Source: Promethearchaeota archaeon (GTDB taxonomy: Archaea; Asgardarchaeota; Lokiarchaeia; Sigyniarchaeales; SOKP01). Taken from it: 23,020 nt of DNA. Location of the stretch: the NCBI GenBank assembly GCA_019058365.1, contig JAHPZE010000047.1:1-23020 (forward strand), given 5' to 3'. How positions within the stretch are numbered: the stretch's first letter is position 1; every line of letters begins with the position of its first letter. The notes beneath the pieces are model-generated. The model had not been told where the DNA came from, made no database searches, and was given only the letters and a program-made list of their open reading frames with translations. Below are positions 2,081 to 22,852 of this stretch, one piece after another. A program made the position numbers and the translations under genes.

Positions 2081-2860
2081 ATGTATTTCTATTTAAAAAC
2101 AGAAATCGAGAAAAATGCCCCTTTTAAAAATTACGTTGTAAAAAGGATACATTGTCCTACTTGTGGTAAAATACAAATAAAGAAAGTCTTCAAAAACCAC
2201 TTTTATACAAAATATAAATGCTGGAATAAAAAGTGTGAGAGAAAGGATATACCGTTTGTTCTAATTAATGATTATTTAAAAAATGAAAGTATCTTCAATG
2301 GCAAATGTGAGTTATGCAATCAAGAGTATTATCGTGAGTTTATAGAAAATGATGAGATCTGGGGTAAACTTATCTTTAAATGTACTAATGATAAATGTGA
2401 TGAATCAAATTATGAACTTTCTTATGATCTTGAAAATGAAGAATGGATAAAGAGAGATATCCTTTCAGATTGTGAATATCACTATATTCATTGGTATCTA
2501 TATAGAAATCCGGGTAAAAAAGAATTTGATATCCTCCATAACTATTTTTACGAAAAAGATTTTGTAATAGTAAAGGAAGATTCAGAAAAGAGTACTCTTG
2601 ATTATCGTAATTTCTTAGAAAATAATACTTCAATTCATTTCAAAATTTCTGTTAAACATTGGGGCTTTGGAATAAGCTGTCATAAAGACATAGAAATTCA
2701 TACAAAAGCAAAATTTGATAATCAAGCAATGAAAATCCTGTCAAAATTATATTTAATCCTTAAAGAAGAAAAATCTGGTAGATGTTTCATGCTTCCCAGA
2801 GAAAGTGAAAAATATAAACAATTTCTTAGAAATAAATTCAATTATAGAACAAATGGGTAA
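2081..2860 (+). CDS. Double zinc-ribbon protein with uncharacterised C-terminal domain
   Basis: Four Cys pairs: CPTC, CWNKKC, CELC, CTNDKC; stop lies 6 nt before the next start codon. Confidence 0.7.
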   Translation: MYFYLKTEIEKNAPFKNYVVKRIHCPTCGKIQIKKVFKNHFYTKYKCWNKKCERKDIPFVLINDYLKNESIFNGKCELCNQEYYREFIENDEIWGKLIFKCTNDKCDESNYELSYDLENEEWIKRDILSDCEYHYIHWYLYRNPGKKEFDILHNYFYEKDFVIVKEDSEKSTLDYRNFLENNTSIHFKISVKHWGFGISCHKDIEIHTKAKFDNQAMKILSKLYLILKEEKSGRCFMLPRESEKYKQFLRNKFNYRTNG

Positions 2861-2866
2861 ATAATA

Positions 2867-5803: not shown

Positions 5804-5818
5804 ATAGTGTGAGATAAA

Positions 5819-8800
5819 ATGCCAATTAATCCAATAGAATTAACAAAAGATATTCAACAAAATTATGCAAATTACCTTTCAGGTACCTTTTACATAAAAG
5901 ATCAGAATTTAAGGAATATAATTATTAAGGAAATTGAGAGTTATCCTTTCATAAAAGGACCTTATTTGGAGTCTATACCACCGTTTAAGAAGGGTGAATA
6001 CTTAAAAGATTTTATCAAAAAGGGTCTTCTTAGCAATATTTTTACAAATTTTATCTACGAGGCTCTTCCTTACCTAAGAGATAATCCATTATATCTGCAT
6101 CAAGATAAAGCAATTCGGAAATTATTAGATAATCGTAATTTAATCATATCTTCAGGTACGGGTAGTGGTAAAACAGAATGTTTTCTTATTACAATCTACA
6201 ATCATCTGTTAAGAGAATACGAGGAGAACATGTATCTTGAACCCGGAGTTCGTGCTTTATTACTATATCCTATGAATGCATTAGCAAATGATCAATTGAG
6301 AAGACTTAGAGAAATAACAAAAGTGATGGAGGAAAAAATCCCAGACGTAAAAATTACATTTGGTAGGTATACAGGAGATACTAAAGATGAAAGTAGAGAG
6401 AGTGCAACACAAAGATTCATGCAGAGATTTCCTAATCAAACTCCCGCTGAAAACGAGCTTCTAACAAGGGGAGAAATGCAAGAAACACCTCCACATATTC
6501 TTATAACAAATTATGCAATGTTGGAATATTTACTTATAAGACCTGGTGATAAGAAATTTTTTGACGGGGAATATGCAAAAAGTTGGAAATTTCTTGTATT
6601 GGATGAGGCTCATATTTATAATGGAGCAAAGGGTATAGAAATGGCTTTACTGATCCGACGCTTAAAAGATAGAGTTTGTAAAAATATGAAAGGAGATTTG
6701 CTGTGCATAGCTACAAGTGCTACCTTAGTATCCGAGGCTGAAGACTATACTAAGGTAACGAAGTTTGCAAGCGATTTATTTGGAGAACTCTTTGAATGGG
6801 ATGAAAATGAAAAAAATAAGCAAGATATTATAGAAGGTAAAAGATTGGATATAGAATTAAGTCAAGCTACAGAAAGTTTCCCTCTTAATATCTACTCCTC
6901 TTTACATTCTCTAATTTTTGAGGAAAGTATTGATAAGGTACAAAGTATATATGACATGCTTAAAGAGCAAGGTATCGAAAAAGAGATTTTAGAAGTCGCA
7001 AGAAAGGAATCAAACAGAGATCTAAAAAAGTTTGTTTATAATTTTCTGGCTTTTGATAAGCGAATTTTGGATTTAAAAATGATATTAAAAGATGGTTCTA
7101 AAGATCTTGACAAATTTATGAAAATTATTTTACAAAAGGAAAATCCAAGTAAAACTGAAAGACAATCAATTATAGACCTAATTAATCTTTCTGTATGGGC
7201 AAAGATAGATGATGATTCCCTACCTTTACTACCTGCACGGTATCATCTTTTTATCCGGGCTCCAGAAGGTATTTTTATATCTTTTTATCCAACCGAACAA
7301 ATCTTTTTGGAAAGGAGAGAAGAAACACATGATAAAAAACCCGTATTTGAATTGGCTGCATGTAGGCGATGTGGTCAAGAATATTTTGTTGGCTTTATTA
7401 AGGATAATGAGTTAAAGCATAGTTTTTCGGAATTACCTCTGTCTGAAAGAGGAAATGATAAGATTACTAATCAATATTTTATCTTTTGGCCAAAAAGTAT
7501 CGAATTCGAGGAGGATGAGGATCAAGAAATCTCACTCCCGGAAGACCTTTCAATAAAAGGGGAACAGTGGGAATTATGTATAAAATGTGGAAGGATTTAT
7601 AAAAATGATGAGCTAAAATGTAAATGTCAAGATGATGTTCCTATAAAGCGTACTTTAATAGAAATAAAACCAAAAAATATAGAATTAAATAAATGCTATT
7701 CATGCAGTCATCGTTCTCCATTTGGGATTGTTAGGAAGTTTATATTTAATCAGAATGATTTAAATTCTGTTTTAGTAACGGTACTATATCAAAATCTAAA
7801 TAAAACTATTATTGAGAATAATGAATTAAAAAAAATTCTGGCCTTTTCCGACAGTCGACAAGGAGCAGCATATTTCGCTCCTTTTTTGCAAGCTGAATAT
7901 GATAAAATCTTGTTCCGTAGGCTTATCATTAAAGCTTTAGATGCAAATATTAAATATAAGGATTATGGGTTATCCTCCTTATATCAGGATGTTTCGATGC
8001 TAGCTCGAAATTATAATTTGCTTGAACATAATCTTGATGATAAACAAAGGTCACAAATCGTATGGAGATGGATAATTCATGAATTTTGTGCTTTATTTGA
8101 TAATAAGCGTAATTCGCTAGAAAGAGTTGGTATGCTTTTCTTTAAACCATCAACACCTAAGAACTGGGTGCCTCCCCCTGAATTGTTAAACCCACCTTGG
8201 AGTCTTACCGAGCAAGAAGTGATCAATCTTTATTATTTTCTACTGAACACTATGAGATATAATTTTGCAATCACTTTGCCAAGTGAAGTCGGATTAGATC
8301 CTTCCGATGCCTTTTTCAGACCTCTTAATAAAGAATATAAATTTCGTGGTGAAATTTCAGATTCAAAGAAACATATCCATTCTTTTATACCTTCAAAAAG
8401 ATATCTGAATAGCAGATTGGATATTGTAAAAAAATTATTTAATAAAATAGTCAATAGAAACGATGAAGATAATGAATACAAGAAAATTTTGGGAATAATT
8501 TGGAATGATTTAAGATCTAATTGGAGAGGACACGGTATTTTTGGATTTAATATACCTAAAGAAGGAATTGTATTTCAATTAGATCATAATTATTGGAGGG
8601 TGGTAAGACGACGCCAAGATGAACAATGGTACTTTTGCGACAAATGCGGGATTATCTTACCTTTTTCAGTTAGGGGTGTTTGTCCTACTTTTAATTGTTT
8701 GGGAGAAGTAAGAATAATCGATACTGAATTTGAAAAATCTCTAAAATATAATTTTTATAGAACCATGTACAGTAAATTTAATCCAATAAAAATGATCAGT

Positions 8801-11146
8801 CAAGAACATACCGCTCAATTAACTTCAGATTATGCTACAGAGGTTCAGCAAAAATTTATTGACGGAGATATTAACATTTTAAGTTGTTCTACTACTTTTG
8901 AATTGGGAGTTGATTTAGGTACTTTAGAGGCCATTTTTTTACGTAATGTACCCCCTGAACCTTCAAATTACGTCCAACGAGCTGGTAGGGCGGGAAGACG
9001 ATTGGATACAATCGGATATACAATAACTTTTGCTCATTTAAGATCTCATGATCTTTCATACTTTAAAACTCCAGAAAAAATGATAGATGGAAGAATTAAA
9101 CCCCCAGAACTCTCCCTTACAAATCAAAAAATTGTTCGACGACATATTCATTCGATTGTTTTAGCTAAATTCTTTCAACTATACGAAAAATTGTATGGAA
9201 GTATAGAAAGTTTTCTTCATCTGAGTGAAGATTTTTCAGGAATTCAACTACTAAAAGATTATTTAGAATCTAAGCCTCAATCGATTCTGACTTCTATAAA
9301 GAGAGTTGTACCAGAACTCGTGAAACAGTATTTTTGTCTAGACACATGGGAATGGGTAGAAGGATTAGTCGGAAGAAATGGTACATTAACAACTGCTGAA
9401 GAAAAGATAACGCTTGAGTATGATTTTTTATCGGATTATTATAACCAAAAACAACAGCAGTGGATTAAGACTTCAAATCAGGATGAAAAGGACAAATTTA
9501 ACAGTGATATGAGATGGGCTAATAAAAGAATTGAAACAATTAAGAAAAAAAACTTAATCGATTTTTTAGCTTCAAATACAGTCATTCCGAAATATGGATT
9601 CCCCGTAGATGTTGTAGATCTACTAGTACTCTCCAAAAGCCCTGCTGCAAAACAAATTGAATTAGAGCGAGACCTAAGAATTGGATTATCTGAATTTGCT
9701 CCTGGAAGTGAAGTCGTAGCGAATAAATATATTTGGAAAAGTGAAGGTCTCAGAGTTCTCCGTAACAGGACGTGGACCATTTATTGGTATGCAATATGCC
9801 CTTATTGTGAACGAATATTTATGGAATTGGGGTCTTTAAAAGAAAAACCCCCCAAAATCTCATGTAATATTCATGGTTCTTTAAATAAATATAGATATCG
9901 ATTTATAATTCCAGAATTTGGATTTACTACAAATATTCAAACTCCGCCTAGAAATGCAGCTTTGTTTCGACCAAGAAAACAGTTTACCACAAGACCTTAT
10001 TTCTATGATTACGGTGAGGTTGAACAGAAAGAGATTTCTATTAAAAAGCTTAAGATTAACATAAAATATGGAAAGCACGGTGAATTAGCAGTTATATGTA
10101 AAGGTAAGGAAGGAGTTGGATTCCGTATATGCCCTTCGTGTGGTGCTGCATTTGCGTATGACAAAAGACTTACTAGCACTCATATATCTCCTTTTGGCTG
10201 GGAATGTAAACGTACGGTTTTTGGACCTAGAATACATTTAGGTCATAAATTTATGACAGATGTAGTTTCTTTAACCTTCATTAAACCTCAAATAAGGGAA
10301 AATCAATATTTTGGTCTTTCACTCCTTTATGGCGTTCTTCAAGGAATAAGTAAAGGATTAGGAATTAAAAGAAATGATCTTGATGGATGTTTACACCAAA
10401 CAAAAGAGGGAATGGTGTTAATTCTGTTTGATAACGTGCCAGGGGGCGCGGGACATGTTAGAAGACTATTACAAGAAGAGAATTTATATAAAGTTTTTGA
10501 AAGTACATTAAGTGTATTAGAAAACTGTTCATGCGGTCCTGAGACCAGCTGTTATAGCTGCTTGAGAAATTATCAAAATCAGTTTTGCCACCATCTTTTA
10601 AGAAGGGGGTTAGTCTCAAAATTTCTTAAAGATTATCTAGGCTATGAAAAAGAGAAGAAAAAACAAAAAGAAATAGATGATAAACTTTTAGTCAGCATTG
10701 GAAGGCAAGGGGAACAAAATGCTTATAACTATATAAGAAAATTAAAAATAGAAGAATTAAGGGTGGATGAGGATCCAGAAACAATTATTATTGATAAAAA
10801 GGATGGATTTATAATTAAATGTCAAGAGAAGGAATTAATTGATGTAACATGGGAAAATGCTATTGAAGAAAAATATAAGGGTTATGATATTAGTTATAGG
10901 GACGATAATAAAATAAAACATTATATAGAAGTAAAATCCACCACCTCCTCTTCAAGAAGCTGGTTTAATATTACTGAAAACGAATGGAAATATTTCTTAG
11001 ATAAAAAAGAGAGGTATTTTATATTCAGAGTATATAATGTCGAATTGGGAAAATTAAATAATGAAAATATCGAGATCATTAAAAATCCGTATAAAGAATG
11101 GATTGAGGGTAAAATAATGGCATATCCATATAAATTAGAGATATAA
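5819..11146 (+). CDS. DEAH-box SF2 helicase (YprA/MrfA/DruE-like) with DUF1998 Zn domain and C-terminal DUF3883-type PD-(D/E)XK nuclease
   Basis: Helicase motifs: Q LYLHQ, I GTGSGKTE, Ia YPMNALANDQ, Ib ILITNYAMLE, II LDEAH, III ATSAT, IV AFSDSRQ, V STTFELGVDLG, VI YVQRAGRAGRR. DUF1998: FDNVPGGAG...CSC..SCYSCLRNYQNQ. DUF3883: IGRQGEQNAY...GYDISY...YIEVKST...ITENEW. Confidence 0.9.
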   Translation: MPINPIELTKDIQQNYANYLSGTFYIKDQNLRNIIIKEIESYPFIKGPYLESIPPFKKGEYLKDFIKKGLLSNIFTNFIYEALPYLRDNPLYLHQDKAIRKLLDNRNLIISSGTGSGKTECFLITIYNHLLREYEENMYLEPGVRALLLYPMNALANDQLRRLREITKVMEEKIPDVKITFGRYTGDTKDESRESATQRFMQRFPNQTPAENELLTRGEMQETPPHILITNYAMLEYLLIRPGDKKFFDGEYAKSWKFLVLDEAHIYNGAKGIEMALLIRRLKDRVCKNMKGDLLCIATSATLVSEAEDYTKVTKFASDLFGELFEWDENEKNKQDIIEGKRLDIELSQATESFPLNIYSSLHSLIFEESIDKVQSIYDMLKEQGIEKEILEVARKESNRDLKKFVYNFLAFDKRILDLKMILKDGSKDLDKFMKIILQKENPSKTERQSIIDLINLSVWAKIDDDSLPLLPARYHLFIRAPEGIFISFYPTEQIFLERREETHDKKPVFELAACRRCGQEYFVGFIKDNELKHSFSELPLSERGNDKITNQYFIFWPKSIEFEEDEDQEISLPEDLSIKGEQWELCIKCGRIYKNDELKCKCQDDVPIKRTLIEIKPKNIELNKCYSCSHRSPFGIVRKFIFNQNDLNSVLVTVLYQNLNKTIIENNELKKILAFSDSRQGAAYFAPFLQAEYDKILFRRLIIKALDANIKYKDYGLSSLYQDVSMLARNYNLLEHNLDDKQRSQIVWRWIIHEFCALFDNKRNSLERVGMLFFKPSTPKNWVPPPELLNPPWSLTEQEVINLYYFLLNTMRYNFAITLPSEVGLDPSDAFFRPLNKEYKFRGEISDSKKHIHSFIPSKRYLNSRLDIVKKLFNKIVNRNDEDNEYKKILGIIWNDLRSNWRGHGIFGFNIPKEGIVFQLDHNYWRVVRRRQDEQWYFCDKCGIILPFSVRGVCPTFNCLGEVRIIDTEFEKSLKYNFYRTMYSKFNPIKMISQEHTAQLTSDYATEVQQKFIDGDINILSCSTTFELGVDLGTLEAIFLRNVPPEPSNYVQRAGRAGRRLDTIGYTITFAHLRSHDLSYFKTPEKMIDGRIKPPELSLTNQKIVRRHIHSIVLAKFFQLYEKLYGSIESFLHLSEDFSGIQLLKDYLESKPQSILTSIKRVVPELVKQYFCLDTWEWVEGLVGRNGTLTTAEEKITLEYDFLSDYYNQKQQQWIKTSNQDEKDKFNSDMRWANKRIETIKKKNLIDFLASNTVIPKYGFPVDVVDLLVLSKSPAAKQIELERDLRIGLSEFAPGSEVVANKYIWKSEGLRVLRNRTWTIYWYAICPYCERIFMELGSLKEKPPKISCNIHGSLNKYRYRFIIPEFGFTTNIQTPPRNAALFRPRKQFTTRPYFYDYGEVEQKEISIKKLKINIKYGKHGELAVICKGKEGVGFRICPSCGAAFAYDKRLTSTHISPFGWECKRTVFGPRIHLGHKFMTDVVSLTFIKPQIRENQYFGLSLLYGVLQGISKGLGIKRNDLDGCLHQTKEGMVLILFDNVPGGAGHVRRLLQEENLYKVFESTLSVLENCSCGPETSCYSCLRNYQNQFCHHLLRRGLVSKFLKDYLGYEKEKKKQKEIDDKLLVSIGRQGEQNAYNYIRKLKIEELRVDEDPETIIIDKKDGFIIKCQEKELIDVTWENAIEEKYKGYDISYRDDNKIKHYIEVKSTTSSSRSWFNITENEWKYFLDKKERYFIFRVYNVELGKLNNENIEIIKNPYKEWIEGKIMAYPYKLEI

Positions 11147-11316
11147 TCTAAAATTTTCCAACTAAAAAACAATGGAAGCTACGCTCAAATTTTTTGATCT
11201 TGGATTTTATTTTCATTAAATCTCCTCTATCCAGTAATTTAAATGATAAACTAAGAATAAAGTGTATGTCTTTAAAAAAAATTTAATTAATTCACATAAA
11301 TTTTCTTAGATTTTGC

Positions 11317-11448
11317 CTACTTTTTAGTTCTCTTATCCGTTGAACTCATAGTACGGGATTTAAAACCTTTATCGCCTTTTGAGCCTTTTTTATCTTGACT
11401 CGATTGAATCCTTCTTGCGGCTTTTGGAGTCATCTTACTTTTTGCCAT
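11317..11448 (-). CDS. 43-aa basic hydrophilic protein, SMP/LEA-like 'RIQS' family (absent from the ORF track)
   Basis: MAKSKMTPKAARRIQSSQDKKGSKGDKGFKSRTMSSTDKRTKK*, preceded by a strong GAGGTGGT RBS at 11456-11463; locally elevated GC. Confidence 0.7.
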   Translation of the reverse strand: MAKSKMTPKAARRIQSSQDKKGSKGDKGFKSRTMSSTDKRTKK

Positions 11449-11477
11449 ACTTTTTACCACCTCTTTTTATGCTATTA

Positions 11478-11891
11478 TTATCTTTTTATAAGTTTACCAC
11501 ATATAGGGCATTCATACCAGTTAAATTCTTTTAATAGAATCATTATTTCGTTGCATTTTGTACAATAAATCCCTGATATTTTGTTTTCACTGGCATTTTT
11601 TGGAGATTCAGAGCTTGATATATGATTCTTTTTCGAGAACTTTATTGATGGTTTTAATTGAAATATTGTTACTCCATTATCAGAAAAGTCTTTACTGATT
11701 ATTATATGCCCATTCTGATTAGCATCGTTTAAAAAAATGTCTGAACGGATATGGTCTCTTATTCTAGTACCATGTTTATGCCCATGTATTATTTCTAACA
11801 TATTATCTCCAATTTCCTTACATTCATCAAATTTGAACATTATCTCATCTATTGCATCTTTTAAAAAGAGCTTATGTACATCTAGTTTCAT
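11478..11891 (-). CDS. Smr (MutS2 C-terminal-like) domain protein with C-terminal zinc ribbon
   Basis: MKLDVH...A...LEIIHGHKHGTRIR...NGVTIF Smr pattern; C-terminal CTKC...WYECPICG. Confidence 0.8.
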   Translation of the reverse strand: MKLDVHKLFLKDAIDEIMFKFDECKEIGDNMLEIIHGHKHGTRIRDHIRSDIFLNDANQNGHIIISKDFSDNGVTIFQLKPSIKFSKKNHISSSESPKNASENKISGIYCTKCNEIMILLKEFNWYECPICGKLIKR

Positions 11892-11940
11892 TTCGCTTGG
11901 ATTTATGGATTATTGTATAATATTAGTCAATTTTATCTAT

Positions 11941-12006
11941 ATTCTATTTTGATTTCCTACCAATATAAATTTTAGTGTATAAATTCAAGAGTAGGGAATC
12001 TAGAAT
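11941..12006. other. Intergenic imperfect inverted repeat / stem-loop
   Basis: ATTCTA(tttt)GATTTCCTAC - 30 nt - GTAGGGAATC TAGAAT. Confidence 0.45.
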
Positions 12007-12017
12007 AACTAAATTAC

Positions 12018-13121
12018 TTAATTTTTAATATTCATTGCTTTTTTAAGATAGTCCTCAAGGTTTTCTCGACAATCTTCAGTGAGCGTAAATTTTTTAGCAG
12101 ATTGAGAAATCAATAATCTAATTTCTATTAATTTTTCAATCGCATTAGCTAATTTTCTATTAGAATAAGACAATATTCCTTCTTTTTTGGCAGAACGTAA
12201 AAGGTTATGTAAATAACTATATTTATGTTCCTGCTTATCCTCATTTTTACCAGTGGTATAGGCATTTATAATTATTTCGAATATTTTTCGCCAGTCTTCT
12301 TTATCAATTATATCTTTAAGATTGGGGCTTAATTCTGATTCTACATGAGGATCTTCCTCAGGTAGGAAAATTTCCATAAAACCTTCAATAATTTCTGTTT
12401 TTATCTTCCCCTTTTCTTCTGCTGCTGCTACGAATTTGCTAAAAGAATTAAAAGTTTTTGTCTTATCATCTGGTTCTTGAACCATTGATGCTCCTTTATA
12501 ATCAAAATTCGAAGAACTTCGCATTAGATTATCTATTAAGGCACTTCGCGTCGTTTTACTGTTTTCTCTTGCAAGTTGTATAGTCTCTATTAACCAATCT
12601 ACTGCAGTATCAAAGGGAATTGGCTTTTCTTTTTTTTTAAATATCTTAATTTTTGAAAAATCTCGAGCTTTATACATTTTAGAAAGTTCTCCAAGAGAAA
12701 GAAAATCATCAGCACTTAATAATAAATGCTCACTTATATTATGGGTATCACCAATTATTATAACTTTTCTACGATTTGCTTTAAGAGCATTCACTAATGA
12801 AATAAAATCCTTATCACCTGTTAATAATATGAAACAATTAATTTCAGGATATAATTGAGCAGTTTCAAGACAATCAACAGCAATTTTTACATCTACACTA
12901 TTCGGTTTTCCCATAGATACTTGAATCGCATCAAATCCCAAACTATAGAGGGCTTGAATAATCTCTTTATTAATTCCTGCCCAATCTGAATAAACTTTTT
13001 TTACTCGAAGGTGACCTAGTGATTCAGAGTATTTTATTAAAGCTTCTGCGATAGGTACATTAATACCTTTTGCTACTACTCGAACATTTTCATAGTCCCA
13101 AAAAATAGCTACTTCATCCAT
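12018..13121 (-). CDS. NYN (LabA/DUF88, PIN-like) ribonuclease with C-terminal LOTUS/OST-HTH-like and wHTH-like domains
   Basis: AIFWDYENV, VYSDW, KPNSVDVKIAVD, LLTGDKDFISLV, LLLSADDF; later FNSFSKFVAAAEEKGKI is LOTUS-like. Confidence 0.85.
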   Translation of the reverse strand: MDEVAIFWDYENVRVVAKGINVPIAEALIKYSESLGHLRVKKVYSDWAGINKEIIQALYSLGFDAIQVSMGKPNSVDVKIAVDCLETAQLYPEINCFILLTGDKDFISLVNALKANRRKVIIIGDTHNISEHLLLSADDFLSLGELSKMYKARDFSKIKIFKKKEKPIPFDTAVDWLIETIQLARENSKTTRSALIDNLMRSSSNFDYKGASMVQEPDDKTKTFNSFSKFVAAAEEKGKIKTEIIEGFMEIFLPEEDPHVESELSPNLKDIIDKEDWRKIFEIIINAYTTGKNEDKQEHKYSYLHNLLRSAKKEGILSYSNRKLANAIEKLIEIRLLISQSAKKFTLTEDCRENLEDYLKKAMNIKN

Positions 13122-13410
13122 ATATAAAACTTCTTTTGATTATTACTGTTGAATATTTTTATCTTAACATAGTAACAATTATCTGAATTTTTATATTTAT
13201 TTCATGTTTTGGTTTAAAAACCATAATCTCCTATTTTCGAAATCTAATATGATAAATAAAATAACAATATTATATAGATAAAAATAAATAATTTCAACGA
13301 ATTAGGGATAACCTGAATCCTACCAATCACCGAGATAGAATAAAAGGATGTTTTTATGTATTAGGATTAATATGAATTGAATAATATTAAATACATTCTA
13401 CATTAAGAAC

Positions 13411-15300
13411 TTAATTGATGATTTTTTGTTTTAATATATTAGATATTACATCATCAGTATCTTTTATTTTCTTATTTTCTTCTATTTTATCTTTTAATTT
13501 AAATAGTCTTACTTTAGCTATATTAATTACATTCATATATGTTTTAGCTTCAATAATTATATTTCTCTCATTTAAATTTTTACCAGCAACATATTTCCCA
13601 ATTTTTGTACCCAGAACATAACAAATGATACCATCTCTACTTTCAAGATGCCCTTCCTCATCTAAATATAGGCAATAATCTTCAGCTTGATGCATATTAT
13701 CTTTATTTAAAGTCGAACCTCCTTTTTTGAGTTCTAAAATTAAAATTTTTCCTACTCCTTCTGGTTCTCCTTTTAGACTGTATTTATCAGTAGAATATAT
13801 CCCTAGTGAAAAATCGTTTGGTATAATAACAAAATCTGGTCTATCCAATATTTTGTTTTTATATTTTTTGTTAAAAAATCTTTTAATAACAGTAATTAAT
13901 GGTTTATTAGATGTATATTGAATTGTATCATATTCTGGTCCAAAAATCCATAATGCTTTTTCAAAGATTGGTTGAAGTTCATGTAACTCATCAGATAGAC
14001 GCTCAGTAAGCACTTCCAAATTCTCTATAAAATCAATTCTACGATAAATCTCAGTAAGAATTATTTTTGCATCTCTTATACTCCAATTTGATAATATTTC
14101 ATTAAGATCTTCAAGTTCCGCTGTTTCTAATTTAGCTAAATTGCTCAATAAATCATATCTTATATTACTTTTCTCAAGATTTATGAGAATCTTCAACAAA
14201 TTCTCTAGATCACTATCATTCAAGTGGGGACAATTTGTTAGGACTTGATCTATAAAAGTACCAATAAAATCTCTTGAATTAATATCTAAGTTATGTAATT
14301 CACGGATTTCAGCTTGTAAAATATTAAATTTTCTCTCTGTTTTTTTTTTCTGAAATAAAGAATCGAGTTTTTTTATTAAATAATCAGATAATTCCTTATG
14401 AATTGCCTTATAACGCTTAGTTTCCTCAAATCCAGTCCAATCGTCTTTAACATCTTCTTGTAGAAAATCTGCGATGATAATAAACACATATTCACGAGCT
14501 TCTCGATATCTTCGATCTAATTTCTCTCCTTCCGCTATTGTCCAAGTAAGGTTACCTACTGTACGATTATTAACCCACCATTGGATTCCATTCTGTTGTG
14601 CTGTTCTTCCTCTCTTAGTTTTAATAATTTTAATCTTAACATCTCCAAATTCAGTAGGTATATTTTCATCAATAATTAAATGTCCTATATCCTCCTCTGT
14701 TATAATATTCCCATTAACATATTTTGTAAAGGAAGGATCTGAAAAGAATTTTGAACCAATTAAATTAATAACCATTTTCTCATTTAACGACAAAATTTTC
14801 TTTAAATTAGTAGAGATTCTCGTTCCAGTCTTCTTATCACTAATCTCCTTATCTTCTACTAAGTGTTCGATATCAAAGGGTTGATTTTTTTGTTCAACCT
14901 TAAATTTATTGTAAAAACCATTTTTACATGTCTCTACGATATATGAATTAGAAAAGCAATACATTGCAAATCTACCTTTTCCATTTCTTCCATAAGCAAC
15001 TCGATTAGCAGGCGTTCCATCAGGAAAGAAAACTTCATTGCCTTGATGCTTTTCCCTGTCATAGCCTATTCCACTCCATCGATAAATAAATTCTTCTTTT
15101 ATCATTCCATTACCATCATCACTAATAATAAAGCTCCTTTCTTCATCATTTCCAATAGTAATGTATACATTTCTAGCTCCTGCATCATAACAGTTAGCAA
15201 TTAGCTCAATTATTGCAATTTCCCAGTTATTTATGATGTTTCGTGCAAAACCCTTAACAAATCTGGAACCAAACCAATTAGTTATTTGTTTAGTAGACAT
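13411..15300 (-). CDS. GHKL (MORC/HATPase_c_3-like) ATPase fused to a C-terminal PD-(D/E)XK nuclease
   Basis: GHKL boxes IIELIANCYDA, ISDDGNGM, GRNGKGRFA, TGTRI; nuclease motifs LWIFGPEY, RPDFVI, ILILELKK, QAEDY. Confidence 0.85.
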   Translation of the reverse strand: MSTKQITNWFGSRFVKGFARNIINNWEIAIIELIANCYDAGARNVYITIGNDEERSFIISDDGNGMIKEEFIYRWSGIGYDREKHQGNEVFFPDGTPANRVAYGRNGKGRFAMYCFSNSYIVETCKNGFYNKFKVEQKNQPFDIEHLVEDKEISDKKTGTRISTNLKKILSLNEKMVINLIGSKFFSDPSFTKYVNGNIITEEDIGHLIIDENIPTEFGDVKIKIIKTKRGRTAQQNGIQWWVNNRTVGNLTWTIAEGEKLDRRYREAREYVFIIIADFLQEDVKDDWTGFEETKRYKAIHKELSDYLIKKLDSLFQKKKTERKFNILQAEIRELHNLDINSRDFIGTFIDQVLTNCPHLNDSDLENLLKILINLEKSNIRYDLLSNLAKLETAELEDLNEILSNWSIRDAKIILTEIYRRIDFIENLEVLTERLSDELHELQPIFEKALWIFGPEYDTIQYTSNKPLITVIKRFFNKKYKNKILDRPDFVIIPNDFSLGIYSTDKYSLKGEPEGVGKILILELKKGGSTLNKDNMHQAEDYCLYLDEEGHLESRDGIICYVLGTKIGKYVAGKNLNERNIIIEAKTYMNVINIAKVRLFKLKDKIEENKKIKDTDDVISNILKQKIIN

Positions 15301-15596
15301 TATAATAGATAAAAAGTATTTTTTTAGTTATTTACTATTTTTGTCTATATTATAATATTATTGGATATAATATAAATTAGATTTGTTAATTAAATTTCTA
15401 ATTTAGGTTCTTAAATTTAAGTAATCATATATTAGGGTTTATATCCTACAAATTTATAATAGAAAAGTTCATTCCATCCCTACTTTTTTAGGAGGGGCAA
15501 CACGGGGGAGGGAAATCCTCAGGAAATTTCAAGAAGTTCTGAAACAATAGAGGTATTTGGATGCGTTTTTAGGAGGAATTACTTGTTTTATTTTAT

Positions 15597-16526
15597 TTAA
15601 GGAACCTTATCCACTCCAATCATATATATATTTTTAAATTCATAATATCTAAGGTCTTTAATTAAATCGGAGCTGCGACTATTCCACCATATTTTTTTTT
15701 TATTCCAAATATCAATACCTTTTTGAATTTTTTTATTAATATCTGGTTCAACTATCACAGTGTTTCCATTTAATGCCCAACCCTTTTCTAAGTTAATATC
15801 AATAAAACCAGCGACAAAACATAAATTCGAGAATTTCATTGTTCTTGAGATAATGCCGTCAATCGCTATAGCATTATTATCTAATTTGAAATGCACTTTT
15901 TTATACCATAATTCTGCTTTTATCTCAATAGGATATTTTTTTGCATTTATATCCAATAAAATCTTTCTTAATTTTTTTCTAATTATGATTTTTTGGTGGT
16001 AAGCTTCAATGTCCCAAGCAAATGGATCACCGGATAACCATTCATTATCAATTATTTTAATTAATTTATTATTTTGATCATCAAATATTTTAACAGATAT
16101 TTGTAGATAGCCATCCTCAGAAATTCTAATAAGGAAAAGATTTTCATTATCAACTCTTATAAAATCTCCATTTCCAATGAAAAGATTACTTCCAGTTGAA
16201 ATAACAAGGTCTTCTTGATTAATTTTCAATAATCCCTTAGTATATCCACGTTGAATATTGAAAGGATTTTCTTTATATCTTCTTTGTTCATCCTCACTCA
16301 TTGCTCCGTCTGTCGCTTCAAAATGACAATAGGGGCATAGACACATCATATCTTCTGGTCTAAAATGTGGATCATCATCAGTATAAGGAATTATGTGATG
16401 ATATTCTATTATTGGCTTACCACATTTACAACATCCAAATCCCGATTCTTGTCTTAATTGTCTCTTTATAGACAAAGGTGTTGGTGGTCTTTTTTTACTT
16501 TTTTCGCTCAAATTTTCCCTTACCAC
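15597..16526 (-). CDS. HNH endonuclease (N-terminal) with beta-rich C-terminal domain
   Basis: LRQESGFGCCKCG..IIEYHHIIP...MMCLCPYCH. The true start may be TTG at 16511, about 29 nt downstream of a TTTATATA box at 16540-16547. Confidence 0.85.
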   Translation of the reverse strand: MVRENLSEKSKKRPPTPLSIKRQLRQESGFGCCKCGKPIIEYHHIIPYTDDDPHFRPEDMMCLCPYCHFEATDGAMSEDEQRRYKENPFNIQRGYTKGLLKINQEDLVISTGSNLFIGNGDFIRVDNENLFLIRISEDGYLQISVKIFDDQNNKLIKIIDNEWLSGDPFAWDIEAYHQKIIIRKKLRKILLDINAKKYPIEIKAELWYKKVHFKLDNNAIAIDGIISRTMKFSNLCFVAGFIDINLEKGWALNGNTVIVEPDINKKIQKGIDIWNKKKIWWNSRSSDLIKDLRYYEFKNIYMIGVDKVP

Positions 16527-16984: not shown

Positions 16985-17662
16985 TTGATAGATCATTCTT
17001 TCAAACTTAATATATTGAGTTTGGAAAAAATGACTGAAACAGAATATAGTAATAAAATTAAACCTACATTTCAAGATGAGCGATTTGAACAAGTAGAAGT
17101 ATTATTTGAAGTTTTCATATTGAGAAATATTCGTAAAAAGTTAAGAAAAAAGCTTAAATCTCTAGAAAAAATGATAAAAGGAGAAAGTAATTCAGAAACT
17201 ACCAAGAAGTTAGAAGCTTTTAAAATAGTCTCTACGGAAAACAATATTAAATTTGAAGATCTTATGTCTAGACTTAAAACTTCATATAACATTTTCAAGT
17301 TAGTAAATGAGCTTGAAACTAATCAACAGTATCTAACGAATCTAAACAAGGAGCGGAAAAAACGTCATATCGATGCGAAACAATATGAGATAACTAAAGG
17401 GTATTATCTCCAAAAAATGATAGATATTCATGATGCGATTAATCAACTGAAAAATATCTCAATATCTTATTATCAAGAATTAAAGGATAAGTTAATTATG
17501 CTTGAAGATCGCCGTATCAGATTAACGACAGAAAAACTTAGAAAAATAATTACGAAAGAAGAATTCAAACCGAAATCTGATGAAATTGAAACATTAAAAC
17601 ATCAGTTGGAAGAAAAATTGGCATTTTTAAAAGTAGAAATAATTGATTTAGAATTAAAATAA
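16985..17662 (+). CDS. Coiled-coil hypothetical protein (likely start ATG 17030)
   Basis: Long amphipathic E/K/L-rich helices throughout; no catalytic motif recognised. Confidence 0.7.
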   Translation: MIDHSFKLNILSLEKMTETEYSNKIKPTFQDERFEQVEVLFEVFILRNIRKKLRKKLKSLEKMIKGESNSETTKKLEAFKIVSTENNIKFEDLMSRLKTSYNIFKLVNELETNQQYLTNLNKERKKRHIDAKQYEITKGYYLQKMIDIHDAINQLKNISISYYQELKDKLIMLEDRRIRLTTEKLRKIITKEEFKPKSDEIETLKHQLEEKLAFLKVEIIDLELK

Positions 17663-17666
17663 AGAT

Positions 17667-18014
17667 TTGAGGTGTTTGCGAATGGTAAAATATTATAAAC
17701 ATAATAAAATAATAAAAGTATTAACTATTATTGGTAGTTTTGCTGGATTCCTTTATTGTCTTTATCAAATCTCAAGTACAACTCAAATAACTAGTTGGAA
17801 TGAAATCTTTGGTTTTGGTAGATTTGTACGTAATCTTATTGGAATGATAATAGCTGCCCTAACATTGCTTGTTTCTTTTAAACCAGATGATCCTTTGCCA
17901 TGGCATTGGCTACTTCTCTTAGCTTTTTCAGTACTCCTTCTATTTTTTAGTTATTTAATGGGAGGAATCTTAGTCCTAATTGGTGGTGTTCTAGGGTTAA
18001 TAGATGATATATAA
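17667..18014 (+). CDS. Small integral membrane protein (3-4 TM helices)
   Basis: Hydrophobic segments and a C-terminal GGILVLIGGVLGLI; GAGGTG at ~17669-17674 suggests the start is ATG 17682 (MVKYY). Confidence 0.7.
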   Translation: MRCLRMVKYYKHNKIIKVLTIIGSFAGFLYCLYQISSTTQITSWNEIFGFGRFVRNLIGMIIAALTLLVSFKPDDPLPWHWLLLLAFSVLLLFFSYLMGGILVLIGGVLGLIDDI

Positions 18015-18031: not shown

Positions 18032-21000
18032 TTATTTTAAAATTAGTTTCTTTTTGAAATAAACCACACTAACAACTATAAAAATTATACTTAATAATGG
18101 AATCAAATAATATCCTGAAATTACTTGAGAGGGTGCTCTTGGGTGATCATCAGGATCTAAAGGGTTTGTTCCTCTATCAACTTCAACCCCATCATTCCAA
18201 TTATCCCCATCTGTATCACCTAATTGAGGATTAGTAGCTTGTAGATACTCTTCGATATTGGTTAACCCATCAATATCAGGGTCAAGATTAGCATCATTAA
18301 CTAAAGGATTCAATAAGTTATCAACCTCCCACTTATCTGGCATCATATCTGAATCAGTATCAATATTTAATGGATCGGTATTATAAATATACACTTCCTC
18401 TCCATCTAATAATCCATCAGAATCAGTATCACTGCTTAATGGATCGGTATAATAAATATTCACTTCCTCTCCATCTAATAATCCATCAGAATCAGTATCA
18501 CTGCTTAATGGATCGGTATAATAAATATTCACTTCCTCTCCATCTAATAATCCATCAGAATCAGTATCACTACTTAATGGATCGGTATTATAAATATTCA
18601 CTTCTTCTCCATCTAATAAATCATCCGAATCTGTATCATTATTGAATGGTTGTGTATCAAATTGATATTCTTCTAGATTAGTTAGATAGTCATTATCTGG
18701 GTCGAAAGCGGAATCATTTGTTAATGGGTCTAATTGGTTGTTTATTTCCCATCCATCTGGTATCATATCCGAATCTGTATCATCGTTTAGAGGATCGGTA
18801 CTGTGAGAATTCAACTCTTCCCCGTCCAATAAGCCATCTGAATCAGAATCAGAATCTAATGGATCAGTCCCATACAGATTAACCTCTTCCCCGTCCAATA
18901 AGCCATCTGAATCAGAATCAGAATCTAATGGATCAGTCCCATACAGATTAACCTCTTCCCCGTCCAATAAGCCATCTGAATCTGTATCATTTGAGGAAGG
19001 ATCTAACCCATTTCCTTGTAGTATTTCAAATATGTCTGTTAGACCATCATTATCTGAATCTCCGTAAACTTCTCTTAATGTAATTACTTCATTTCCTTCA
19101 ACTTCAATAAAAATTTCAAATCCAGTAATATTATATCCTTCTTCAATCGTAATGAAATCATTGTAATACCCAAATCCGGTGCTTGTACAGATTAAATCTT
19201 CTAACATAAAGGTGTTAAAAGTTATATTAGGCGAAATAGTGCAAACGGTTATATTTAATGTCTTTAGGAGCCCATGGCCATAGAGAATAAATGAATAATT
19301 TAGTTGATTTTCAATAAAATCGTAGGAAATAGGGCTTAATGCGGGATACAATACTGATTCTCCATCTATTCCATCATATATTTGTGGGTGATATTGAATT
19401 CCTGGCCCATAACTAGCAGAATAAGATTTAGTTCTTGAGGAAACATATGAAAAGCACTCTTCAGTTGATAAAATTCCATCACCATTTAGATCGTTAGCAT
19501 TATCTACTGATTCAAGAAGATAATAAGTAAAAATTCCGTTATTTAATACTGGGTCTTCCATACTAAATTGCCCACCCTTACATGCTGTCATAATAAAATT
19601 ATCAGTCGCTTGTGTTTCAGTGATCATCCCTCCACTATTACATGCGTCTATAACCACATATTTATGATCACAATTAAGGGTATTTAATTTCGAATCGAGC
19701 AAATTATCCGTATAATAATTGCTTGGGTTACTAGGTAAAGAATCATATGGACATAAATAATGTGGGCTTTCATATCTTATAACTTCAACCATATCAATTC
19801 TGAATCCCCAATAATAATCTGGATTATAATAATCACTTACTAAATTCACATATATTCTATTATCATTGAGGAGAGGAATCCAATCAGACCAGAAATTGGT
19901 ACCATACCCGGTGAGACTCTGATAATAATACCCCTCGGTAATATAAGTATCACCAATATAAAGATAATCATATCCATCCTCAAGATCTAATGTCTCAAAG
20001 TGAACTCTCATATATGCGGCATCAGTAACTGCATACCACCACGTGTAATCATAATTATCAGGATAAGGATGTGGAGATTGAATATAATGGGGAATTGTGC
20101 CAATATTCACAAGATCCGCCCCACCATGGCCTGAATAATAGAAATAGAAAATATCATCCTGATCGATCATTGAAGATATTGAATTAAAAGCATTATTAAT
20201 TGCGCTTTTAGTAGCACTGGAATCTTGTAAAAAGATAATATTTTCAGATCTGAAATTGTAATCGTCTATCAACATGTTATAGACTTCGATAGCATCATCA
20301 TCGCAATAAGAGAGGTCATTTTCAGTTCCAGGATAATTAGAAATACCAATAACAACAGCATACGCATTTCTAGGGTTTAAATTTTTAATAACTATTACAG
20401 ATTTATACCCTAAATTACCAGCTAAATCATTTGCATAGAAAGTGATATTAACATATCCGTCCTCGCAAGCATCCCACTCAGATTGATTTACTACTCCAAT
20501 TAAGCTTGTGATATTAAGTTTTATTCCATTATTTAAACTATACCATGTTCTATCTAAATGTACCTCATTAATTAGAATATTATAAGAAGGAAGAGAATCA
20601 AGAAAAGCATGTGATTCTGGAGCAATGATAGAAATATTAGGGGGTGTAGAATCTTTTACAATTTTCCTATCTTCAAAAGCAATATTATGAGCTAAATCAC
20701 TAGCATAGAATCTTATAGTTACATTACCATCTTCTTGTGAAATCCATGTGCTCTGATTAATTATCCCCAGAGGACTAAAAAAGGTAAAATTGGTCAACCC
20801 GTCATCTAAAGTATACCACATAGATTCCAAGTGGAGATCAGTGATATAAACAATATAATTTGGAGTAGAGACCCCAAAAAGCTCATAAAATAAAGGGGAA
20901 TTAATAAGTATTATTGGATCTATTGCATCCTTGTATAATTGTACTTCACTCACCACTTCACGTGAAATTGAATCATTAATATAAAACTTTAAAATTACTA

Positions 21001-22852
21001 ATCCCTCATCGGTATTATTCCAAGCATATTGATTTATCTCTCCAGAGCTATCATTGAACATAAATATTGGGCTGTTATTTATAGTATACCACGTAGAATT
21101 AATGTTTTTTCCATGCTTAATTATATTATAATTTAATTGCTTCCCATATAATTTAAACGATTCTGGTTGGATAATCTGAATATAAGGGGCATATATGTCT
21201 TTATTTATTTCAATTATTGTAAATCCTAAGTTACTAACAGTATCATTAGCATAAAAAATAATTTCAACTGTTCCATTATTGCACATTTCCCAAGCAGTTT
21301 GATTAATAGTAATAAAACTTGACGAAAATGTGTAGTTATTTAAACCTCCATCTAAAGTATACCAACTTGAATCTAAATTGGGATCATCAATCAATAGATT
21401 GCAATTTGGAGAGTAATTCCCATATACTTGATAAGGTTCTGGAGACTGAATTATTATAATGGGATCAACAATATCTTTTCGTACATTAACCTCTTCAAAT
21501 TCAATGACTCCAAATGAATCATTAGCATAGAATTTAATATTGAGATTTCCATTTCCATATAGTTTCCAAAGATCTTGATTAATCTTCCCCGTTTCTCCTG
21601 AGAAAAAATAATTTTCACTATTATTTACAGTGTACCATGTTTTATTTATGATGGATTCATGAAACTCTAAAGAGAAATTTGGAGATTCTACACCATACAC
21701 TTGATATTGGGTAGGATTATTGATACTAAATAGACCTAAACCTTCTAACTTGATTAACCATGCATCATTGTTAATATAACCCCCAAGAAATATGGAGCCT
21801 GATGAATGAATTAAGATATCATTGCACCAACTCGAAGTAATTTCAGTGGGCTCAAATGTATAATTCCAAAGAAAATTTCCTAAATTATCATGCTTAGCAA
21901 GACACCATTGATTGTTCACAGTTCCAAAGCTGTAAAGATTATCATACTTATCTAGAGCGATTTCTGCACAATAGGATAAAGGAATTTCATATTCTATAAT
22001 TTTAAAAATTAATTCTCCACTTGAATTGTATTTGTATAGAAAAAATTCATTATCTTCTGTGAATGATATAATAATATCATCTGAACTGTCACATTCGATA
22101 TCGTAATCATAGACCCATTGATAATCAAAACACGTACGTTCCCATAAAATACTACCAGAAGTATTTAATTTAAAAAGATCAGTTCCGTGGTATGGATAGT
22201 CCCCTACAACTCCTGCAATATAAATATTATCAGAACTATCAATCGCCATTTCTCTTACTCTTTCAGGGACATGACCAAGTGAGGCTAGCCATGTCTTATT
22301 CCAAATATGATTACCTTGAGCATTTATTTTCATTAAACAGTACTTACGATTAGTACCGTCATAAAAATGTTCTTTAAGTAGATATATGTTATTTTGCGAA
22401 TCTAAAACAAGGTCACATAAATCCCCACTCAACTCCCAATTAATTTCCCACAATAAATTTCCTTCACTATCATACTTGCTTAAGTTTGTAGAATAAGCAG
22501 CATAAACATTATTCATTGGATCACAACAGATTTTACTAAAAATACCACTGCGATTCCATAATAAATATCCTGAAGCATTATACTTTAATAATGTAAATTC
22601 ATCTGGTTCTGCTGTCCAATTACTTAATATTGCATATATATTTTTGTTAGAATCTTCTGCTAGAGAAATTATAGTTTGAAAATCCTTTCCTCTCCATGTT
22701 TTATTCCACAAAATATTAGGAGTCGAAGATAATTCTACAGAATGATCTATACTAAATTTATTGAAAGAAGGAAAGTTTATAGTTATAGTCTTACTTGAAA
22801 AAGATAGCAATATTAAAAAGATTATAAAAATGCTATTTTTTTTGTTCCTCAT
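18032..22852 (-). CDS. Secreted, C-terminally anchored multidomain surface protein: beta-propeller + 5 Ig-like repeats + caspase-family (C14) peptidase with CUB-like insert + TSP3-like Ca-binding repeats + Loki-CTERM-like anchor
   Basis: Signal peptide MRNKKNSIFIIFLILL; repeats of KYDSEGNLLW/DSSDNIYIAG; 5x WY(T/S)...FYAND; AYAVVIGISNYPG, DLSYCDDDA, FYYSGHG, VIDACNSGG; DSDSDGLLDGEE repeats; ISGY-TM-KKK tail. Confidence 0.85.
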   Translation of the reverse strand: MRNKKNSIFIIFLILLSFSSKTITINFPSFNKFSIDHSVELSSTPNILWNKTWRGKDFQTIISLAEDSNKNIYAILSNWTAEPDEFTLLKYNASGYLLWNRSGIFSKICCDPMNNVYAAYSTNLSKYDSEGNLLWEINWELSGDLCDLVLDSQNNIYLLKEHFYDGTNRKYCLMKINAQGNHIWNKTWLASLGHVPERVREMAIDSSDNIYIAGVVGDYPYHGTDLFKLNTSGSILWERTCFDYQWVYDYDIECDSSDDIIISFTEDNEFFLYKYNSSGELIFKIIEYEIPLSYCAEIALDKYDNLYSFGTVNNQWCLAKHDNLGNFLWNYTFEPTEITSSWCNDILIHSSGSIFLGGYINNDAWLIKLEGLGLFSINNPTQYQVYGVESPNFSLEFHESIINKTWYTVNNSENYFFSGETGKINQDLWKLYGNGNLNIKFYANDSFGVIEFEEVNVRKDIVDPIIIIQSPEPYQVYGNYSPNCNLLIDDPNLDSSWYTLDGGLNNYTFSSSFITINQTAWEMCNNGTVEIIFYANDTVSNLGFTIIEINKDIYAPYIQIIQPESFKLYGKQLNYNIIKHGKNINSTWYTINNSPIFMFNDSSGEINQYAWNNTDEGLVILKFYINDSISREVVSEVQLYKDAIDPIILINSPLFYELFGVSTPNYIVYITDLHLESMWYTLDDGLTNFTFFSPLGIINQSTWISQEDGNVTIRFYASDLAHNIAFEDRKIVKDSTPPNISIIAPESHAFLDSLPSYNILINEVHLDRTWYSLNNGIKLNITSLIGVVNQSEWDACEDGYVNITFYANDLAGNLGYKSVIVIKNLNPRNAYAVVIGISNYPGTENDLSYCDDDAIEVYNMLIDDYNFRSENIIFLQDSSATKSAINNAFNSISSMIDQDDIFYFYYSGHGGADLVNIGTIPHYIQSPHPYPDNYDYTWWYAVTDAAYMRVHFETLDLEDGYDYLYIGDTYITEGYYYQSLTGYGTNFWSDWIPLLNDNRIYVNLVSDYYNPDYYWGFRIDMVEVIRYESPHYLCPYDSLPSNPSNYYTDNLLDSKLNTLNCDHKYVVIDACNSGGMITETQATDNFIMTACKGGQFSMEDPVLNNGIFTYYLLESVDNANDLNGDGILSTEECFSYVSSRTKSYSASYGPGIQYHPQIYDGIDGESVLYPALSPISYDFIENQLNYSFILYGHGLLKTLNITVCTISPNITFNTFMLEDLICTSTGFGYYNDFITIEEGYNITGFEIFIEVEGNEVITLREVYGDSDNDGLTDIFEILQGNGLDPSSNDTDSDGLLDGEEVNLYGTDPLDSDSDSDGLLDGEEVNLYGTDPLDSDSDSDGLLDGEELNSHSTDPLNDDTDSDMIPDGWEINNQLDPLTNDSAFDPDNDYLTNLEEYQFDTQPFNNDTDSDDLLDGEEVNIYNTDPLSSDTDSDGLLDGEEVNIYYTDPLSSDTDSDGLLDGEEVNIYYTDPLSSDTDSDGLLDGEEVYIYNTDPLNIDTDSDMMPDKWEVDNLLNPLVNDANLDPDIDGLTNIEEYLQATNPQLGDTDGDNWNDGVEVDRGTNPLDPDDHPRAPSQVISGYYLIPLLSIIFIVVSVVYFKKKLILK
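18368..18640. repeat. Coding tandem repeat, 69-bp unit, ~4 copies (TDPLSSDTDSDGLLDGEEVNIYY)
   Basis: Units start at 18368, 18437, 18506 and 18575 and are near-identical at the DNA level. Confidence 0.95.
18815..18982. repeat. Coding tandem repeat, 69-bp unit, ~2.4 identical copies (DSDSDGLLDGEEVNLYGTDPLDS)
   Basis: Units start at 18815, 18884 and 18953. Confidence 0.95.

Follow-up and report, generated by a model that had tools for sequence, protein, structure and literature searches.

A CUB domain nested between the catalytic histidine and cysteine of a predicted caspase-family surface protein of Asgard archaea

Introduction

Can a protease of the caspase fold hold a complete CUB domain between its catalytic histidine and cysteine, and what would such a domain do beside the active site? 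Caspase-family enzymes are textbook modules, as CUB domains are, and the question is raised here by a gene from the Asgard archaea, the closest known relatives of eukaryotes. The gene lies on contig JAHPZE010000047.1 of a Promethearchaeota archaeon (assembly GCA_019058365.1). The whole contig (C25 in our numbering; 23,020 nt, about 25-34% G+C) was analysed and is referred to below as the window; the genome comprises 4.74 Mb in 54 contigs. The gene is a single open frame:

18032..22852, minus strand: whole gene (P0001), predicted to encode a type-I surface protein of 1606 amino acids.

Results

A split caspase domain with an intact catalytic dyad

Scanning of the full protein showed that the Pfam family Peptidase_C14 (PF00656) was matched in two separated stretches (expectation value, E, 6.5e-19; 69 bits, the cut-off being 21.4) and CUB weakly; the head fragment alone scored 74.8 bits on Peptidase_C14. 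Residues were compared with Arabidopsis metacaspase-4 of the Protein Data Bank (AtMC4) and in two alignments, A2 with 55 rows and A4 with the 16 closest nested relatives. The features of the split domain are:

20111..20365, minus strand: caspase N-half, residues 830-914, with the order beta1-alpha1-beta2-alpha2-beta3 and ending in SGHG; matched to PF00656 positions 3-83 and to metacaspase-4 in the PDB (E 1.7e-9).
20126..20128, minus strand: catalytic His909, aligned with the His of YSGHG in AtMC4; it is found in every row of A4 and is conserved to 90% or more in A2.
19373..19762, minus strand: caspase C-half, residues 1031-1160, with alpha3, beta4 ending in DAC, and the p10-like part; second stretch of the Pfam C14 match, with an overlapping match to Peptidase_C13.
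19640..19642, minus strand: catalytic Cys1071 (IDACNSGG), aligned with DSCHSGG of AtMC4 and invariant in A4.
19457..19492, minus strand: canonical 12-residue EF-hand-type loop, DLNGDGILSTEE, residues 1121-1132, read from the sequence; a helix of the caspase C-half lies on either side of it.

The first-pass annotation of the window had placed an intact C14 dyad at these two codons (the His of SGHG at 20126-20128 and the Cys of DAC at 19640-19642) and had estimated the two residues to be about 160 positions apart; both statements held, with a measured spacing of 162 residues. The same interval covered 148-162 residues in 77 insert-bearing proteins, as compared to a median of 51 in 152 other relatives, all but three of which fell within 38-79.

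Further comparison revealed that H909, C1071, D851-D853, D1069, G1074 and G1075 are invariant in A4, and pseudo-variants of the catalytic residues (such as Tyr or Ser) were not found among the aligned sequences. In the sequence alignment, C850-D-D-D853 was matched to C-V-N-D of AtMC4 and D1069-A-C1071 to D-S-C. From what is known of TbMCA2 and AtMC4, we take C850-x-x-D853 and D1069-x-C1071 to form an acidic S1 pocket. Metacaspases cut after Arg or Lys, and the conservation of the dyad and of the S1 positions, together with their alignment to AtMC4, suggests that the enzyme is probably active and cleaves after Arg or Lys as metacaspases do.

Within the EF-hand-type loop, the first Asp, D1121 (alignment position 292), does not vary in A4, and D1125, S1129, E1131 and E1132 are conserved in at least 90%; the model described below flanks the loop with helices at model residues 278-289 and 301-317. 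A faint match to EF-hand_5 was obtained in the orthologue of the cultured strain MK-D1, and the loop was also seen in bacterial relatives. With this loop, prokaryotic C14 domains could have a calcium site other than the acidic loop of metacaspases.

An insertion directly after the histidine loop

The residues that separate the two halves, and the domain within them, are the following:

19763..20110, minus strand: inserted module, residues 915-1030, a two-stranded stalk plus a CUB domain; close un-nested relatives are without it.
19781..20092, minus strand: CUB core, residues 921-1024, with the acidic trio E958/D962/D1007 and no cysteines, identified from sequence and fold matches.

In close un-nested relatives, the region after the histidine reads SGHGG-(5-8 aa)-HY(L/I)CPYDS, while the window protein reads SGHGG-ADLVNIGTIPHYIQ-[CUB]-MVEVIRYESP-HYLCPYDS. 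Because only 5-8 residues occupy this place in the un-nested relatives, the approximately 115 residues from 915 to 1030 are a clean, true insertion into a short loop. The insert has been kept across dozens of clusters defined at 50% identity, and a nested arrangement conserved to this extent is far beyond chance.

A discontinuous caspase fold carrying a CUB insert, as had been proposed from the sequence, is also what structure prediction returned. The AlphaFold2 model of residues 830-1159, built with alignment A2, had a predicted local distance difference test score (pLDDT) of 96.7 and a predicted template modelling score (pTM) of 0.91, and the high pTM suggests a fixed orientation of the CUB relative to the caspase. 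VIA-align superposed the model on AtMC4 (6w8r_B) with a Z score of 24.0 and a root-mean-square deviation of 2.0 Å, aligning 199 residues; since these extend across model residues 1-330, nearly all of the approximately 215 residues outside the insert fit the metacaspase fold. Long strands of the model (residues 81-96 and 187-204) leave and re-enter the caspase core, flanking a beta-sandwich. In Foldseek the full model matched the caspase-hemoglobinase fold at E 8e-10, its best PDB matches being metacaspases 9 and 4, GSU0716, Yca1, MALT1 and legumain. Since both halves superpose on AtMC4, the predicted structure is that of a single continuous caspase fold, in which the short loop after the catalytic His is replaced by a stalk bearing a complete CUB domain.

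A protein of 1531 residues from a metagenome-assembled genome labelled Bathyarchaeota (P0177; L034:103-4695, plus strand) has a similar layout (propeller-like region, caspase and thrombospondin type-3 repeats) with a different insert of about 85 residues at the same His-Cys site, for which no Pfam match was found. Given this second insert, the post-His loop may be a permissive insertion point and a hot spot for domain insertion.

Identity of the insert

A CUB-like module had been proposed at about 19785-20090, right after the His loop; the limits found here agree with this proposal, and both sequence and fold comparisons identify the module as CUB. The only significant match of the insert in a phmmer search of PDB sequences was cubilin CUB5-8 (E 0.0021), with all four cubilin CUBs aligning to SPHPYPDNYDYTW...VHFETLDLE of the insert. 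A family profile of the module matched nine PDB sequences at E of 0.01 or below, all of them CUB (TSG-6, enteropeptidase and neuropilin-1), and the pattern SP.YP..Y..W...F..F.LE...DY..I.D...SD...GF can be read in the insert directly.

The fold searches gave a similar picture. Lower in the Foldseek list of the full model appeared the CUB proteins MAp19 (E 1.3e-5) and PCPE-1 (2e-5). A model of the insert alone reached a pLDDT of 76.5 and returned mostly CUBs at TM-scores of 0.5-0.6, including CUB2 of MASP-1 (8e-4), CUB1 of C1s, CUB2 of C1r, Kremen, neuropilin, spermadhesins and TSG-6, with a GOLD domain (rank 3) and CBM36 interspersed. Greater weight is given to the full model because the insert-only model is of middling confidence.

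An exhaustive HMMER search revealed the same module in other proteins as 4-8 tandem free copies. Five of the nine free-copy proteins scanned passed Pfam CUB, P0081 (80 bits), P0202 (72) and P0170 (50) by a wide margin, as did caspase-adjacent copies in L083, L091 and L082 (36, 35 and 30 bits, respectively). Since these homologous copies pass the threshold, CUB homology of the insert is supported transitively. By sequence and by predicted fold, the insert belongs to the CUB superfamily, of which it is a divergent member without cysteines.

The alignment of the family profile with the CUB of TSG-6 brought the LE..DY and SD motifs into register, and LE, DY and SD were mapped by eye to LDLE958, YD962Y and SD1007 of the insert. 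Among 60 nested copies, E958 was retained in 88%, D962 in 100% and D1007 in 96%. By analogy with C1s and MASP structures, we take this trio to be the calcium ligands of the calcium-binding subset of CUBs. The prokaryotic subtype also has two near-invariant motifs that animal CUBs are without, S-x-H-P-Y (residues 926-930) and R-V-H-F (residues 949-952), whose two His are 81-95% conserved; their role may be structural or that of a second metal site.

Distribution of the nested arrangement

A search for the same nested architecture, a course suggested for Asgard proteomes with the first-pass annotation, recovered 31 further loci with the order caspase N-half, CUB and caspase C-half among the species representatives of GTDB. 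All were labelled Promethearchaeota, Hodarchaeota or "uncultured archaeon", and the CUB module was absent from the bacterial and other archaeal loci recovered from the same representatives. The nested family thus appears confined to Asgard archaea. Across the phylum, 71 of 400 genomes and 37 of 85 genera had the module, which was patchy even within the genus of the window (10 of 53 other genomes). Two nested copies occur in the cultured Promethearchaeum syntrophicum MK-D1 (L028, 736 residues; L095, 1260 residues). The genome of the window also holds two copies of the module, both nested, the second being encoded on contig C48 by a protein of 1071 residues with a cytoplasmic zinc ribbon.

Other Asgard lineages (L082-L087, L089 and L091) have the same CUB subtype, with about 40% identity to the insert (E about 1e-15), placed upstream of a caspase that is not split. 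These proteins have about 420-740 residues, most of them about 500, and in the three that were scanned with Pfam the two domains are separated by PPC (L082 and L083) or by Ig-like Big_7/Big_13 domains (L091). In four further proteins the caspase comes first and the CUB follows, so that the subtype is paired with C14 in three ways: nested, CUB-PPC-caspase and caspase...CUB.

A FastTree phylogeny of the caspase cores, calculated with the insert removed, placed the CUB-upstream caspases in a separate starred clade and showed the nested rows surrounding a starred clade of 33 un-nested proteins. The tree fits one insertion with subsequent loss without proving it, and also fits several gains: the best tree requires 7 changes, the starred branches force only 1, and deep branches have support of 87-94.

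Layout of the surface protein

The caspase domain is embedded in a modular protein whose order is signal or anchor, propeller-like region, five repeats, caspase, a conserved domain of about 100 residues, thrombospondin type-3 (TSP3) repeats and transmembrane anchor. Outside the head, the following features were delimited:

22772..22834, minus strand: N-terminal signal peptide or anchor, residues 7-27, preceded by MRNKKN (Kyte-Doolittle mean 2.02 over 19 residues).
21731..22735, minus strand: beta-propeller-like N-terminal region, residues ~40-374, with sub-threshold Pfam and NCBIfam hints (SBBP, Beta-prop_ACSF4, delta-60 repeat).
20381..21724, minus strand: five tandem repeats of ~92 residues, residues 377-824, in no Pfam family; phmmer of repeat 2 returned five copies, E 5.5e-13 to 9e-65.
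19067..19372, minus strand: post-caspase domain, residues 1161-1262, in no Pfam family; the block NxLxYSF...GxG...TGFGYY is kept in alignments A1, A2 and A4.
18173..19066, minus strand: about ten bacterial-type, calcium-binding TSP3 repeats, residues 1263-1560 (Pfam TSP3_bac, E 4.7e-31, 9 stretches).
18038..18130, minus strand: C-terminal transmembrane anchor and short basic tail KKKLILK (Kyte-Doolittle mean 2.35).

Hydropathy analysis (Kyte-Doolittle) of the 1606 residues revealed only two hydrophobic segments, residues 7-27 and 1575-1605. Recurring "NIY...G" motifs are seen in the translation of the propeller-like region, and ten DxDxDG-type motifs in the TSP3 region. The protein has 37 N-glycosylation sequons (NxS/T), 21 of which lie in the five-repeat region (residues 377-824); the caspase-CUB head (residues 830-1160) has none. 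The NCBIfam scan of the protein gave sub-threshold matches only (CglD, MtsD and caspase_w_EACC1), and an anchor model of the Loki-CTERM type was not matched in NCBIfam at E of 0.01 or below.

The two terminal hydrophobic segments, the TSP3 repeats and the 37 sequons indicate that the protein is very likely extracellular and membrane-anchored, in agreement with the extracellular location first proposed. The accompanying generalization that caspase-like proteases are mostly cytoplasmic did not stand, and extracellular location alone is not new, because membrane and extracellular metacaspases have already been catalogued in prokaryotes (PMC3501461).

The tail-less subclade and the gene neighbourhood

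The window protein belongs to a clade of 12 rows (support 100) with very long N-terminal ectodomains; in its members, where complete, no more than 1-14 residues follow the C-terminal transmembrane helix. In most of the other nested proteins, a cytoplasmic tail of 100-270 residues ends in a zinc ribbon; the window protein lacks the long CxxC..CxxC tail and ends in its seven-residue basic stretch. Since a cytoplasmic tail is missing, the protein would be a purely extracellular enzyme or adhesin and not a transmembrane signaller, and this tail-less copy argues against obligatory transmembrane signalling for the nested family.

Of the 35 nested loci examined, 21 are directly followed by a small zinc-ribbon membrane gene, among them that of the C48 paralogue. 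The product of the gene beside the C48 paralogue (L001:7199-7816, plus strand, equivalent to G000:C48:10198-10815) has a C-x2-C...C-x2-C ribbon followed by transmembrane helices. The genome holds a single homologue of this partner, on C48. No such gene adjoins the window gene downstream, and upstream the contig ends 168 nt past the start codon; the neighbour search returned no conserved partner gene for the window gene.

Two open reading frames at 16985-18014 (plus strand), convergent to the caspase gene, encode a Lys/Glu-rich coiled-coil protein of 225 residues, in no Pfam family, and a protein of 115 residues with about three transmembrane helices; no link between them and the caspase gene was found. 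The region 2081-16526 is nuclease- and helicase-rich and defence-like, with HEPN, a DEAD helicase with MZB and NOV_C, Smr, NYN, a GHKL ATPase and HNH; this neighbourhood is unrelated to the caspase gene.

Discussion

Relation to known proteases and CUB proteins

The window protein is a member of family C14 (clan CD), on the metacaspase/orthocaspase side. It shares the caspase-hemoglobinase fold with the metacaspases and orthocaspases of MEROPS C14B (Arabidopsis AtMC4, 6w8r and 6w8s, and AtMC9, 8a53 and 9n3d; yeast Yca1, 4f6o; bacterial GSU0716, 3bij), with Z scores of 23-24 and deviations of 2.0-2.1 Å, as well as the SGHG and DxCxSGG motifs, the acidic S1 positions and a single chain with a p10-like part. 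It differs from them in the 115-residue CUB plus stalk between His and Cys, and in a head that is predicted to be extracellular and membrane-anchored within a 1606-residue modular surface protein. The protein fits none of the metacaspase types I, II and III: the p20-like part is directly followed by the p10-like part, without the long linker of type II and unlike the p10-before-p20 order of type III, and the upstream parts are extracellular repeats, in contrast to the Pro/Gln-rich or LSD1 zinc-finger prodomain of type I.

The insert shares the jelly-roll, the motifs and the Glu/Asp/Asp trio with the calcium-binding CUBs of animals (C1r/C1s, MASP-1/2, MAp19, cubilin, TSG-6, PCPE-1 and enteropeptidase), and like them it is attached to an extracellular protease. 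However, the Asgard CUB is without the disulfide cysteines and has its own S-x-H-P-Y and R-V-H-F signature; it lies within the catalytic domain and not next to it in the chain, its host is an archaeon, and its partner enzyme is a cysteine protease instead of a serine or metallo-protease. The zinc-ribbon-tailed nested CUB-caspases (L028 of MK-D1 and the C48 paralogue) have the same head, post-caspase domain, TSP3 repeats and transmembrane helix at 38-55% identity, and the subclade of the window departs from them in its long N-terminal extension and the absence of a cytoplasmic zinc ribbon. In the CUB-PPC-caspase proteins of other Asgard lineages, by contrast, the CUB precedes an uninterrupted caspase domain. 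Neither a CUB nor any other complete binding domain was found described between the His and Cys of a clan-CD protease in the literature searched.

Proposed role of the nested CUB

Our preferred reading, which we hold at about even confidence from sequence, model and analogy, is that the CUB would act as a built-in calcium-dependent exosite, selecting or positioning a substrate or ligand for the neighbouring cleft. A calcium ion is held by the Glu/Asp/Asp trio of animal CUBs, which also captures a basic ligand side chain, and the trio of the Asgard CUB would do likewise. A rigid stalk leaving the chain at Gly910 would put the CUB beside the active site, where the captured substrate or ligand would be positioned or selected for the adjacent Arg/Lys-directed cleft, while the propeller-like region, the five glycosylated repeats, the TSP3 repeats and the transmembrane anchor would hold the head outside the cell. 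An exosite is favoured because the CUBs of animal proteases do this job, because this type of CUB recurs together with C14 in three arrangements, and because the first residue of the stalk directly follows the catalytic His.

Several observations weigh against this reading. The insert itself scores 17.8 bits on Pfam CUB (PF00431; E 0.0042), under the cut-off of 21.4, and none of the classical four CUB cysteines, which form two disulfides, is present in residues 915-1030. The residue that we take, in C1s numbering, to match the Ser of the animal calcium site is Tyr here. In addition, the 33 close un-nested relatives in the starred clade indicate that the CUB is dispensable for the fold.

A different and unlikely role would be that of a calcium switch, in which calcium binding by the CUB, and by the EF-hand-type loop, would order the stalk that begins at Gly910, the neighbour of His909 in the oxyanion hole, and activate the protease, replacing the acidic loop of metacaspases. 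Bacterial and other archaeal relatives carry an acidic DGDDE-type calcium loop after the His (SGHGS..DGDDE...), which is absent from the nested family and from its nearest un-nested kin, and the CUB occupies exactly this position. The acidic trio of the CUB and the canonical EF-hand loop of the C-half are both conserved, and metacaspases are calcium-regulated, as stated in two reports (PMC9626678, PMC12914765). However, the un-nested sister clade has neither the acidic loop nor the CUB, with a short Ser/Gly loop instead, and keeps the dyad, so that a calcium switch at the post-His site is not obligatory. The animal CUBs of the calcium type also speak against it, since in these the ion serves ligand capture and not allostery.

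We consider it similarly improbable that the protein is an adhesin or scaffold for cell-cell or cell-matrix contact, for instance with syntrophic partners, in which the CUB, the propeller and the repeats would do the binding and the caspase would be idle or limited to self-processing. A huge, glycosylation-rich modular ectodomain with TSP3 repeats, the sub-threshold likeness to the cohesion proteins CglD and MtsD, the lack of a conserved operon partner and the fact that CUBs are binding modules would all suit such a protein. Yet the nested family shows no variation at the dyad, the oxyanion Gly or the Asp residues of the S1 pocket, which argues for purifying selection on catalysis, and the aligned sequences hold no pseudo-variant.

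That the insert is an unrelated small beta-sandwich (GOLD, CBM or PPC-like), similar to CUB by chance or common fold, is very improbable and was rejected: the sub-threshold Pfam score, the missing cysteines, the middling insert-only model and the GOLD and CBM36 matches would allow it, but every sequence-level match is a CUB, homologous copies exceed the Pfam threshold by wide margins, CUB chains dominate both fold searches and the CUB motif pattern is readable in the sequence itself.

Significance

Returning to the exosite, a further step, which we regard as a long shot, is that a calcium-held acidic site beside an Arg/Lys-specific cleft would make the head a capture-and-cut device for specific surface or matrix proteins of the archaeon or of its syntrophic partners. 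If so, Asgard archaea would have used, independently or ancestrally, the logic of CUB plus extracellular protease known from the complement and tolloid systems of animals, and the recurrence of CUB-caspase pairings would be the mark of an extracellular proteolytic system that serves cell-cell interaction throughout the lineage. Since the cultured MK-D1 has two copies, the nested family is open to testing. The finding bears on extracellular protein processing by cells that live through surface contact with partners, on the age of the CUB-protease partnership and on the tolerance of the caspase fold to insertions beside its active site, and the window copy shows that the CUB-caspase head also exists without a cytoplasmic tail.

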